A DNA stretch of 32,000 nucleotides from an uncultured archaeon. Lineage in GTDB: Archaea; Asgardarchaeota; Thorarchaeia; Thorarchaeales; Thorarchaeaceae. The notes under the pieces are model-generated. The model saw nothing but the letters and a program-made list of their open reading frames with translations. It did not search any database and was not told the origin of the DNA. The stretch lies in NCBI GenBank assembly GCA_964648855.1, contig CAZYLT010000006.1, forward strand, positions 98,069-130,068, in the 5' to 3' direction. The position numbers and the translations under genes were made by a program. Below are positions 1-3,433 of the stretch, in pieces; position 1 is the first letter of the stretch, and each line of letters begins with the position of its first letter.

Positions 1-181
1 AAGGGGCCATTATAGTTAGTACTGTAACAAGGTTGATGATAGTCGCAATGCCCATTATCATTCCATGTATTTTGTATGGCTTCTTCTTTATCCATCCAGC
101 CACTAACATGATGACCAATGCAGTTTGGATAATCAGATTGATGTCGTAAATCAATGCTGCTTGCTGTGAAAATATTCCCAT
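1..181 (-). CDS. Membrane protein, DUF420-like (partial, runs off window start)
   Basis: Hand translation from ATG at 181: MGIFSQQAALIYDINLIIQTALVIMLVAGWIKKKPYKIHGMIMGIATIINLVTVLTIMAP..., open to the edge. Two hydrophobic helices around a KKK..H..M loop. Not in the ORF track. Confidence 0.7.
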   Translation of the reverse strand, partial: MGIFSQQAALIYDINLIIQTALVIMLVAGWIKKKPYKIHGMIMGIATIINLVTVLTIMAP

Positions 182-245
182 TCCAATCAGTTGTGCATGA
201 TGTTGGTGGTTCCCCTTAAATCCTTCTCACAACTGATATTGGGGA

Positions 246-287
246 CGAAAGAATGAAGAGAGATGCCCAGCACCCCGGGCAGGGGTG
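246..287 (-). terminator. Hairpin plus pyrimidine tract, possible end of the hydrogenase operon transcript
   Basis: Minus strand CACCCC-UGCCC-GGGGUG hairpin (287-271) followed by CUCUCUUCAUUCUUUC. Confidence 0.35.
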
Positions 288-328
288 TCCGATTCGGCTC
301 ACAACTTTACGCCGAACCTTCATCCGCC
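278..328 (-). promoter_or_regulatory. Eukaryote-like SECIS element for vhuU
   Basis: Minus strand: GGCGG-AUGAA-GGUUCGGC-GUAAAGUUGUGA-GCCGAAUC-GGAC-ACCC-CUGCC. AUGA...GA non-Watson-Crick core, 8-bp helix II (318-311/298-291), unpaired AAA 11 nt after AUGA, 5-bp helix I (328-324/282-278). Lies 80 nt 3' of an in-frame UGA at a Ni-ligand position. Confidence 0.85.
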
Positions 329-472
329 GCTGGTTACAATCTCCTTCCGTGCTATCTCGCGACCCTCATCGTCCACGATGGTAAGATGAGCGCCGCAGGA
401 TAGTCAGCAGTCGTAGCAGCGAACCACCATTTCCAGGAGGTTCAGCAGTCCTTCAGGTATGTCGTCTGTCAT
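320..472 (-). CDS. vhuU: [NiFeSe]-hydrogenase small selenopeptide subunit VhuU (Sec23 at TGA 406-404)
   Basis: Hand translation: MTDDIPEGLLNLLEMVVRCYDC-U-LSCGAHLTIVDDEGREIARKEIVTSGG*. Matches the L2 motif R-x-Y-D-P-(C/U)-x-S-C-x-x-H that is missing from the upstream large subunit. Starts 13 nt after the vhuA stop, with a SECIS directly downstream. Confidence 0.93.
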
Positions 473-485
473 TTTTGTTCACTTC

Positions 486-1799
486 TCATATCATGGGGTC
501 TGGTAAGTCCAGACTCTCATGTTCCTTATTCTCGAATACTTGCTTGGCTGCCTTCAATAGGCTCTTCTCGAGCCCGGCGATGTTATTATTGGTGGCAACT
601 ACCATATTCACCTTTGTGATAACGCCATTCTCATCAGTCCAGTAGTGGTGGATGAGAGTACCTCTCGGTGCCTCCACACAACCAACACCATTCCCCTTTC
701 TGGGTTCAACATCAGCCAGTTTTACATCTGTACTAACAATATCCGGGTCATTGAGGAGAGCTTCCATCTCTTCTACAGCTTGAACCAACTCAATAACTCG
801 GGCCCAGTGGTAGGCAAAGGTAGCATGAATCGGCCGCCCTAAGGCGTCACGCATTTCCTCCAGGGCCTCTTGGGCAATGGGGGTGGCCATCTTGTCTGCC
901 ACGTTTATTCTGGCAAGACTATTAGCCCGCCAGATGCCCTCCGGATATCCCTTTTGCTTATAGTATACATGTGTGGCGTATGAGTGATTAGAAACGTATT
1001 CTCCGTAATATTTGCGGTAATGCTTTGGATTGAAGTCTTCTACTATCTTACCATCTGGATCCATCACTCTTAGTTTGCCATCATAGATCTCCAGGTTGCC
1101 TTTGTCATGCAACCCGAGGTAATAAGTTGGAACCACTGCAAGTTTGGTTATGGGATCCCAATAATCCTGCACGACTTTTTTAGCTAGGTCAACAGTATCA
1201 AGAGTCTGTTGTTTGGTCTTCTCAATTCGTTTCAGGAATTCATCTCGCTTTTCCTCTGAAAATGGATTCAACATTCCGCCCGGTGTTGCAGTCACGGGAT
1301 GGATTGCTTTACCACCTACAGCGGCACACAATTCCTGCCCGAACTTCATTACTTCAAGTGCCATCTTGCCTACATCTGGAAGGCTCTTGATGATTTGCAC
1401 AACGTTGCGCTTCTCAGGCTTAGCAAACGGTCCTGCAAGAAAGTCGGGCGCAGCAAGTGCAAAGAAATGCAATGCGTGGCTGCTGTACTGTTTCGCGTTT
1501 ATCAGTAGTCTGCGCAATTTAATAGCAGCAGGTGGGGGAGTTACTTTCCATGCCGCTTCAACACTTTTCACTGCAGCAAGGTGATGGGGCTCTGGACATA
1601 TCCCACAGATTCTTGGTGCGATACGTGGTGCTTCCTCAGCAAATCGTCCCTCCAAGAACTTCTCAAAGAAACGAGTACTACTCACGTTGAATTGAGCATC
1701 CTTGACTTTACCATCTTTTCCTAAGACTACGGTAATTTCACCATGTCCTTCTAGGCGGGTCACTGGTTCAATCCTGATTGTCTTATCGTCTTTGGTCAT
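486..1799 (-). CDS. vhuA: F420-non-reducing (group 3c) [NiFe]-hydrogenase large subunit, split type lacking the C-terminal L2 motif
   Basis: IEPVTRLEGHG, L1 motif RICGICPEPH, EAPRGTLIHHY, VATNNN; ends without DPCxxC. Confidence 0.95.
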   Translation of the reverse strand: MTKDDKTIRIEPVTRLEGHGEITVVLGKDGKVKDAQFNVSSTRFFEKFLEGRFAEEAPRIAPRICGICPEPHHLAAVKSVEAAWKVTPPPAAIKLRRLLINAKQYSSHALHFFALAAPDFLAGPFAKPEKRNVVQIIKSLPDVGKMALEVMKFGQELCAAVGGKAIHPVTATPGGMLNPFSEEKRDEFLKRIEKTKQQTLDTVDLAKKVVQDYWDPITKLAVVPTYYLGLHDKGNLEIYDGKLRVMDPDGKIVEDFNPKHYRKYYGEYVSNHSYATHVYYKQKGYPEGIWRANSLARINVADKMATPIAQEALEEMRDALGRPIHATFAYHWARVIELVQAVEEMEALLNDPDIVSTDVKLADVEPRKGNGVGCVEAPRGTLIHHYWTDENGVITKVNMVVATNNNIAGLEKSLLKAAKQVFENKEHESLDLPDPMI

Positions 1800-2708: not shown

Positions 2709-3173
2709 TTAGTTATCCTTCCCTGCTGGATTTGGTCCTAGCTTTTTGATTCTCTCTACCATTGCTGTTACGCCCTGAGTAAATACATCACCTTCAGCCG
2801 CGCTTGCCCATTGAAGATGGACACGTTGTGAGTCTATACCCGCCTCCTTCAACATAGTTTGGAGTAACACAAATCTGCCTCTCATCTTGAGGTTACCGCT
2901 TGTGTAGTGACAATCACCAGGATGACACCCACTGATGAGAACACCGTCTGCGCCTTGATTTAGTGCATCAAGAATGAAAACAGGATCTATTCGCCCCGTG
3001 CAGTTGATTCTGATGACCCGCACATTTGAGGGCATCTGCATCCGGCTTGTTCCCGCAAGGTCTGCCCCGGCATAACTGCACCAGTTGCAGCAAAACGCCA
3101 AGATTCGGGGTTCAAAGCCTGACTGCCGCTTCTTTTTCTTTTTCATGGCTGTCGTCTGACTTACTGATGTCAC
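2709..3173 (-). CDS. mvhD: Hydrogenase [2Fe-2S] subunit delta (all-Cys form)
   Basis: FCCNWCSYAGADLAG, CTGRIDP, GADGVLISGCHPGDCHY. Start is probably GTG 3173 (GGAGGT 9 nt upstream) or ATG 3146, rather than 3299. Confidence 0.95.
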   Translation of the reverse strand: MTSVSQTTAMKKKKKRQSGFEPRILAFCCNWCSYAGADLAGTSRMQMPSNVRVIRINCTGRIDPVFILDALNQGADGVLISGCHPGDCHYTSGNLKMRGRFVLLQTMLKEAGIDSQRVHLQWASAAEGDVFTQGVTAMVERIKKLGPNPAGKDN

Positions 3174-3433
3174 GCTGGAATGACCTCCTGCGGCTTGTTG
3201 CTCGCTATGATTATTGATTATTAAGATTCTGTTTAGTCGCACTTTTCTTTGGGCAGAAGCAATCATAATTCTTCTTAGAATTATGGTTTTCAAACACATT
3301 GAGATCTAGTGTTTCACGATAGTTTCTCATCCACGCATTCATGTCTTTCATCTATCGAGTTTAGCAACAGTTTTTATGTCCCGCTCCTTATGGTACATGA
3401 GTTGCTGAGCTATAACTGGAACGGTGAAATGAT

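Follow-up and report, generated by a model that had tools for sequence, protein, structure and literature searches.

A probable eukaryote-like selenocysteine insertion element in Candidatus Thorarchaeota vhuU, with the stop codon of the gene inside its core

The window analysed here, a stretch of 32,000 nucleotides, opens within a minus-strand operon that comprises an mvhD/vhuD-like gene (3299-2709), vhuG (2707-1796), vhuA (1799-486) and vhuU (472-320). The protein encoded by vhuA ends in ...LPDPMI and thus stops ahead of the DPCxxCxxH motif. The vhuU gene, 153 nt long, runs on the minus strand from an ATG at 472-470 to a UGA at 322-320, and its translation, with U for selenocysteine (Sec), is MTDDIPEGLLNLLEMVVRCYDCULSCGAHLTIVDDEGREIARKEIVTSGG. 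A Pfam search with the 50-residue product returned no match. Its last ~30 residues match the C-termini of [NiFe] hydrogenase large subunits (residues 373-403 of 3zfs_A, E = 1.5e-5), and it also matches the 27-residue Vhu subunit 9sfi_M in a comparison with PDB sequences; on the basis of these alignments we assign the small open reading frame as vhuU. In the PDB hydrogenases, the position of the Sec residue is taken by the first Cys of DPCLSC, a Ni-ligand Cys. As in other members of the VhuU class, the small open reading frame directly follows a truncated large subunit and encodes D-x-U-x-x-C-x-x-H and then a tail. VhuU is therefore predicted from its sequence to supply the Ni ligands missing from VhuA, and the tail to be of the kind that is cleaved at maturation. 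The features of the locus are collected in Table 1.

Table 1. Coordinates of genes and RNA features at the vhuU locus, numbered from the first letter of the window.
Feature	Positions	Strand	Basis or detail
vhuA-like [NiFe(Se)] hydrogenase large subunit without C-terminal Ni ligands	486-1799	-	Pfam NiFeSe_Hases, E 4.7e-29
vhuU, selenoprotein gene of 50 codons	320-472	-	translation; matches to [NiFe] large-subunit C-termini
Sec UGA, at the first Cys of a DPCxxCxxH-type motif (here DCULSCGAH)	404-406	-	PDB match; relatives
Predicted 17-bp hairpin within the coding sequence, from the first base after the Sec UGA	352-403	-	CUAUC/GAUAG, UGCGGC/GUCGCG, CUCAUC/GAUGAG
Basal stem P0, 5′ strand GAAGGAGAU (Lys-Glu codons)	339-347	-	minimum free energy (MFE) fold; 79% paired on MAFFT alignment
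Lower stem P1, 5′ strand CCAGC	329-333	-	RNAalifold; 88% paired, compensatory changes in 5 of 7 pairs
Linker GGCGG (Gly-Gly codons), 5′ strand of helix I in the earlier note	324-328	-	pairing with the P3 loop possible, almost no compensatory support
AUGA SECIS core; its UGA (322-320) is the vhuU stop	320-323	-	invariant in 40 of 40 aligned sequences
Helix II, 5′ strand GGUUCGGC	311-318	-	8 bp; all 9 aligned pairs with compensatory changes; 90% of cells paired
Apical loop GUAAAGUUGUGA, 12 nt, conserved AAA	299-310	-	two invariant A columns; loop begins GUAAAG
Helix II, 3′ strand GCCGAAUC	291-298	-	pair counts on alignment
3′ GA of the core quartet	288-289	-	G nearly invariant, A and C invariant (G-GA-C at 290-287)
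Side hairpin P3, ACCCC/GGGGU, loop UGCCC (YGCAA in most relatives)	272-286	-	93% paired; 3 of 5 pairs compensatory
Lower stem P1, 3′ strand GCUGG	267-271	-	RNAalifold and pair counts
Basal stem P0, 3′ strand AUCUC-U-CUUC (CUCCUUC in relatives)	255-264	-	MFE fold and alignment

The nearest public VhuA sequence is that of the Candidatus Thorarchaeota metagenome-assembled genome TEKIR_14 (97% identity). Other close matches are also from Thorarchaeota, and more distant ones come from Atabeyarchaeia, Sifarchaeum and Borrarchaeum. The genome that contains the window (G000; 3.1 Mb, 94.6% complete) encodes a tRNA-Sec (54.7 bits, above the Rfam cut-off), SepSecS (470 bits), SelB (281 bits) and a PSTK-like protein, which at 143 bits scores under the NCBIfam cut-off but whose gene adjoins those for tRNA-Sec, SepSecS and SelB on one contig. 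These four genes lie within ~4 kb (C6:54406-58639) on the window's own contig, ~40 kb before the window start. With the SelD gene, which contains one in-frame UGA and thus encodes Sec-SelD, the Sec machinery is present in the genome; the earlier note on this DNA had held that its absence would speak against a selenocysteine insertion sequence (SECIS) here.

A search of the genome for Sec forms of MvhD/FlpD found Cys forms in all eight copies, including the one at 2709-3299 of the window, with no in-frame UGA, unlike VhuD of Lokiarchaeia; there is thus no hdrA-vhuD SECIS in this genome for comparison. Among the VhuU, SelD and MvhD/FlpD genes, the selenoproteins found are two VhuU and SelD. The second vhuA-vhuU pair (C23:2714-2820, loci L054/L155) encodes a VhuA 68% identical to that of the window; the vhuU and the stop-in-core SECIS of this pair are almost the same as those described here. 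In selD (C12, ~36.9 kb, minus strand, locus L005) the stop UGA also falls inside a SECIS core, GUGA U GCUAUCA ... UGAUAGC G GA, which belongs to a type II element with a CCA/UGG ministem. The selD element has a side hairpin, GGCCG-UAGCAAA-CGGCC, and a lower stem, GAGACU/AGUCUC, in the same three-way layout as that described below for vhuU.

The element at the end of vhuU has the features of a type I Asgard SECIS: (i) AUGA, replaced by GUGA in rare members of the class, lies directly 5′ of the upper stem, and GA, for which AA may stand in the class, lies one base past the 3′ strand of that stem. (ii) The upper stem falls within 7-15 bp with no more than two mismatches. (iii) The loop falls within 8-20 nt and has unpaired adenines on its 5′ side. 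(iv) The gene that ends in the element has an in-frame UGA where homologues have Cys, and the genome encodes tRNA-Sec, PSTK, SepSecS, SelB and SelD. RNAfold recovers helix II and the 3′ hairpin. The earlier note had read the AUGA core as the vhuU stop, followed by helix II, an AAA-containing loop and a 3′ GA, and each of these was found on the minus strand where it had placed them. The AUGA/GA core (323-320 and 289-288) is predicted to be kink-turn-like, beneath an 8-bp helix with an A-rich loop. We conclude, with a probability of about 90%, that this is the Sec-insertion element of vhuU of Candidatus Thorarchaeota, an Asgard eukaryote-like (type I) SECIS in which the UGA of the core terminates translation. 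A second in-frame UGA is located at 299-301 on the minus strand, seven codons past the vhuU stop, where the apical loop ends on its 3′ side. Upon readthrough of the first UGA it would be a back-stop, and it is present only in some close relatives.

The motif by itself proves nothing. A bare descriptor (AUGA, a 7-12 bp stem, an 8-20 nt loop and N[GA]A) has 1064 matches in the 3.1-Mb genome, 75 of them with AAA early in the loop, and is thus not above chance. We therefore dropped the loose type I descriptor scan, both as a SECIS finder and as an argument for significance, as too unspecific. Specificity comes instead from the position of the element at the end of a gene with a UGA at a Ni-ligand Cys, from conservation and covariation, and from a covariance-model scan. 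A covariance model of the element (R1) has only two matches genome-wide, both at vhuU 3′ ends, with 83.7 bits in the window and 82.4 bits in the second vhuA-vhuU pair; the next-best match in the genome scores 14.9 bits (E = 8). R1 has no match in a Cys-form vhuU locus (L037) or in vhuA loci that have no vhuU. The curated Rfam models do not recognise the element, a cmscan of window positions 1-1200 at E ≤ 10 having returned no SECIS family and only a chance sRNA match (E = 4.8). The term eukaryote-type accordingly rests on resemblance of motif.

We gathered vhuU loci from relatives and aligned 40 distinct sequences with MAFFT (alignment A1), which were folded with RNAalifold. The 43 loci come from many genera and include Atabeyarchaeia, Sifarchaeia and Borrarchaeia-type genomes. 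In 42 of 43 Sec-vhuU loci, the first in-frame stop is the UGA inside AUGA, followed by the SECIS helix, and the same stop-in-core layout occurs in all 15 named GenBank records inspected, a set that partly overlaps the 43 loci. Sec and stop are always 84 nt apart, except in five loci where a four-codon insert makes the distance 96 nt. At the Sec position itself, 42 relatives encode U, and one Cys-form encodes C.

RNAalifold on A1 yields three helices, namely the lower stem, helix II and the 3′ side hairpin, with compensatory changes in 14 of 16 pairs. In the extended structure, pairing holds in 90% of cells, and both sides have changed in 17 of 21 pairs. None of 500 shuffles reached the observed pair values and slid controls gave 26-48%, although the sequences are kin and these statistics overstate their independence. 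The alignment of vhuU 3′ ends across Asgard genomes for which the earlier note had called thus shows covariation of helix II and near-universal retention of the stop/core overlap. Together with the Sec machinery, these results back its claim of a eukaryote-type SECIS that overlaps the vhuU stop.

Two exceptional loci are instructive. In L073 (G044:C49), an in-frame UAA occurs 13 codons after Sec and the AUGA SECIS is kept ~40 nt further on, so the stop/core overlap is not obligatory. In L037 (G013:C63), the Cys-form vhuU has UGC at the Sec site and encodes DCCLSCSAF, in which the His is replaced by Phe, and it ends in UUGA. This locus contains no helix II, no side hairpin and no Sec-adjacent hairpin, and thus serves as a natural control; judging from the loss of the His ligand, the gene may be decaying. 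VhuA orthologues at 77-86% identity, many of the closest among them, share the truncated C-terminus at a further set of loci (L022, L024, L028, L030, L031, L033, L034, L046 and L075-L082), where no vhuU and no SECIS was found within 1.2-1.5 kb downstream. These VhuA proteins may borrow VhuU from a paralogous operon, or they may be inactive.

The MFE fold of 409-249 (-66.5 kcal/mol) gives exactly the arrangement of P0, P1, core, helix II and P3, in which P3 pairs 286-282 with 276-272. In P0, the coding GAAGGAG (347-341) pairs with a downstream tract of the CUCCUUC type, and two well-populated pairs have compensatory changes, from G-C to A-U; the paired fraction listed for this stem comes from the unrefined MAFFT alignment. 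Taking P1, P0 and P3 as parts of the element therefore gives a three-way junction of ~93 nt, at ~347-255. The covariation indicates that the helix I of this element is P1 (CCAGC/GCUGG), extended by P0.

The earlier note had instead drawn a two-helix form, in which GGCGG (328-324) pairs with CUGCC (282-278) as helix I directly below the core, and had regarded the hairpin at 287-271 as a fold competing with that helix, which would make it non-functional or regulatory. Both strands are present and can pair as it described. Four of the five pairs are possible in most relatives (G-C in 33, C-G/U-G in 34, G-C/G-U in 39 and G-C/G-U/A-U in 35 of 39-40 sequences), the YGC triplet varies less than the other positions of the P3 loop, and the frhA lower stem [U/C]GG_C[C/U][A/G] given in the available part of Huang et al. 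2024 (PMC11227280) could be read as this helix. However, the 5′ strand consists of Gly-Gly codons and the sequence is mostly invariant, so that conservation of GGCGG needs no explanation at the RNA level. The changes are nearly all one-sided, and the sole double change (A-U, in three close relatives) is probably a single event. In addition, the first, outer pair cannot form in 31 of 39 sequences. This pairing also excludes P3 and leaves P1 unexplained, whereas both P1 and P3 covary and appear in the MFE and RNAalifold folds. We therefore consider the two-helix form unlikely and do not retain GGCGG/CUGCC as helix I, the covarying closing helix being CCAGC/GCUGG. The hairpin at 287-271 does exist, not as a competitor but as the conserved, covarying arm P3. 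The GGCGG/CUGCC pairing overlaps P3 by one pair and otherwise uses its loop, and it may represent a tertiary loop-linker contact or an alternative conformer. The sequences would also permit GCG (327-325) in the linker to form a pseudoknot with YGC in the loop of P3, but the Gly-Gly coding of the linker confounds a test of it.

The pairing of P0 also bears on whether the structure could be a mere intrinsic terminator, or could serve to stabilise the vhuDGAU mRNA at its 3′ end, with a coincidental resemblance to AUGA/GA. The last gene of the operon does end in this structure, a pyrimidine/U-rich tract comes next, and the bare motif has over a thousand occurrences in the genome. The downstream pyrimidine tract, however, is the pairing partner of the coding GAAGGAG. 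Furthermore, the stem covaries around an AUGA, loop adenines and a GA-C that do not vary, and the element accompanies Sec-vhuU only: neither the Cys-form nor the vhuA loci that lack vhuU have it. We regard this explanation as extremely improbable, and the SECIS reading is kept.

Upstream of the junction, a predicted hairpin (403-352) begins directly after the Sec codon. Its folding energy is -27.8 kcal/mol (z = -3.7). Across Thorarchaeia 88% of cells are paired, and four pairs have compensatory changes. These changes join non-synonymous and wobble sites, as in UGCGGC/GUCGCG, UGCGCC/GGGCGC, UGUGCC/GGGCAC and UGCGGU/GAUCGC. A comparable hairpin was sought after the selD Sec codon of the same genome and is absent there (z about 0), and it is absent from distant Asgard classes as well. 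Any recoding role would thus be specific to vhuU. In starting right after the Sec UGA within the coding sequence, the hairpin resembles the SRE of eukaryotic SelN and the bacterial SECIS, and by analogy it could act as an SRE-like element that pauses the ribosome at the Sec UGA. It differs from both in its absence from selD and distant Asgard classes, and no SelB-binding loop motif was identified in it.

Only four bases separate this hairpin from P0, so the region from the Sec codon to position 255 is predicted to form one compact structured unit. We tentatively suggest that the vhuU mRNA of Thorarchaeia carries a composite recoding module, made up of the hairpin at 403-352 and the three-way-junction SECIS at 347-255 and larger than the published stem-loop, while considering it more probable that the two do not form such a module. 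If the hairpin and P0 stack, the kink-turn SECIS would be held beside the Sec codon, which would amount to a bacterial-style 'adjacent' geometry around a eukaryote-style core.

A plausible mechanism can be outlined for how one short gene could use UGA both for Sec and as a stop. The element sits ~80 nt past the UGA that must be decoded for nickel binding by the hydrogenase. The SECIS would direct SelB and Sec-tRNA to UGA 406-404, 84 nt upstream, and the UGA at 322-320 within its own core would end translation. With a ribosome at 406-404, the leading edge would still be more than 40 nt from P0, and the SECIS would thus be intact. By the time the A site reaches 322-320, P0, P1 and the core would already have been unwound and the 5′ strand of helix II would be inside the mRNA channel; no SECIS would be left at that moment, and the release factor would win. 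Melting of the SECIS is in our view a plausible way of discriminating Sec from stop. We infer Sec insertion, the binding partner and unfolding as the cause of stop reading at the second UGA; a search of public sequencing runs for the locus returned no RNA run and only DNA runs from microbial-mat metagenomes, which may represent the sample of origin.

Alternatively, UGA 322-320 might not be a true stop: partial decoding as Sec, or readthrough, would extend VhuU as far as UGA 301-299. In the window, as in some close relatives, a second in-frame UGA does follow after 21 nt, and extra residues would be harmless in a C-terminal tail of the type removed at maturation. Nevertheless, the frame past the first UGA is conserved in neither length nor sequence, the substitutions in it track base-pairing rather than codons, and stops so near a SECIS have been argued not to be recodable (Mariotti et al. 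2016, PMC4989117). Such readthrough thus appears quite improbable, more so than the two-helix fold, and termination at UGA 322-320 remains the favoured reading.

Both the overlap and the idea behind it have precedents. Mariotti et al. (2016, Mol Biol Evol 33:2441, PMC4989117) described the lokiSECIS, with AUGA, a 9-bp stem, an 11-nt A-rich loop and GA or AA, and reported that in Loki VhuU.1 the AUGA motif doubles as the UGA stop codon. They also argued that, as in eukaryotes, a minimal distance is required and that stops near the SECIS therefore cannot be recoded. Huang et al. (2024, ISME J 18:wrae111, PMC11227280), in the part of the article available to us, surveyed 1439 Asgard selenoprotein genes and found that UGA stops often overlap the AUGA motif. 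Since the overlap and the mechanistic idea are stated in the first of these articles and, as far as the available part of the second extends, repeated there, the finding has already been published: the stop-in-core overlap and the proximity idea are known for Asgard archaea and are not new, contrary to the novelty implied in the earlier note.

The closest relatives of the element are found in the same two articles. It shares with the SECIS of Loki VhuU.1 the AUGA before a stem of ~9 bp, an A-rich loop of ~11 nt, a purine-A after the stem and the location at the vhuU 3′ end. The Loki VhuU core is AUGA_AA, whereas it is AUGA_GA here, and the Loki loop starts with adenines, compared with GUAAA here. 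The type I eSECIS-like elements of Thorarchaeia frhA (= vhuU), as defined in the available part of Huang et al. 2024, are matched more closely: the window fits NNGAN, a 7-15 bp stem, an 8-20 nt loop and NGANN, and also the G[U/G]AAA loop, reported there for most Thorarchaeia frhA, and the frhA lower stem. What differs is the extent of the model. Mariotti et al. 2016 cover the stem-loop only, without lower stems, side hairpin or Sec-adjacent hairpin; the model of Huang et al. 2024 consists of an internal loop and a lower stem, and the available part of that article makes no mention of a 3′-side hairpin, a long basal stem or a Sec-adjacent hairpin. More generally, we found no description of the Sec-adjacent hairpin or of the three-way shape in the portions of the Asgard SECIS literature examined. 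SECISearch3, which the earlier note had suggested running, fails on Asgard elements according to Mariotti et al. 2016 (PMC4989117) and the available part of Huang et al. 2024 (PMC11227280).

Similarity to eukaryotic elements (form 1, Rfam SECIS_1) lies in the position 3′ of the recoded UGA, in action at a distance and in an apparent minimal spacing. Relative to SECIS_1, the upper helix here is shorter (8-9 bp), the element overlaps the coding sequence and forms a three-way junction, and there is no Rfam match. SBP2 has been reported absent from Asgard archaea in published surveys, including that of Mariotti et al. 2016 (PMC4989117). With the methanogen-type SECIS of Methanococcus and Methanopyrus, the element shares a location at or near the 3′ end of vhuU/frhA and selD, and the same PSTK, SepSecS and archaeal SelB. 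It differs in having an AUGA/GA core and a continuous helix II, and neither the GAA_A asymmetric bulge nor the short G-C upper stem. Membership of the methanogen type was ruled out because the folded element has no GAA/A bulge.

The Asgard SECIS has been proposed as a link between archaeal and eukaryotic Sec decoding. Within that setting, the stop-in-core layout provides natural evidence, already available in the literature, that a UGA lying too near a SECIS cannot be recoded by it. The window adds one more example from Thorarchaeota, and the analysis further shows that almost all sampled vhuU genes have the overlap and that selD of this genome is arranged in the same way. The three-way architecture and the Sec-adjacent hairpin are relevant for the design of Asgard SECIS reporters or covariance models, as a minimal stem-loop construct may miss parts of the element that are under selection.
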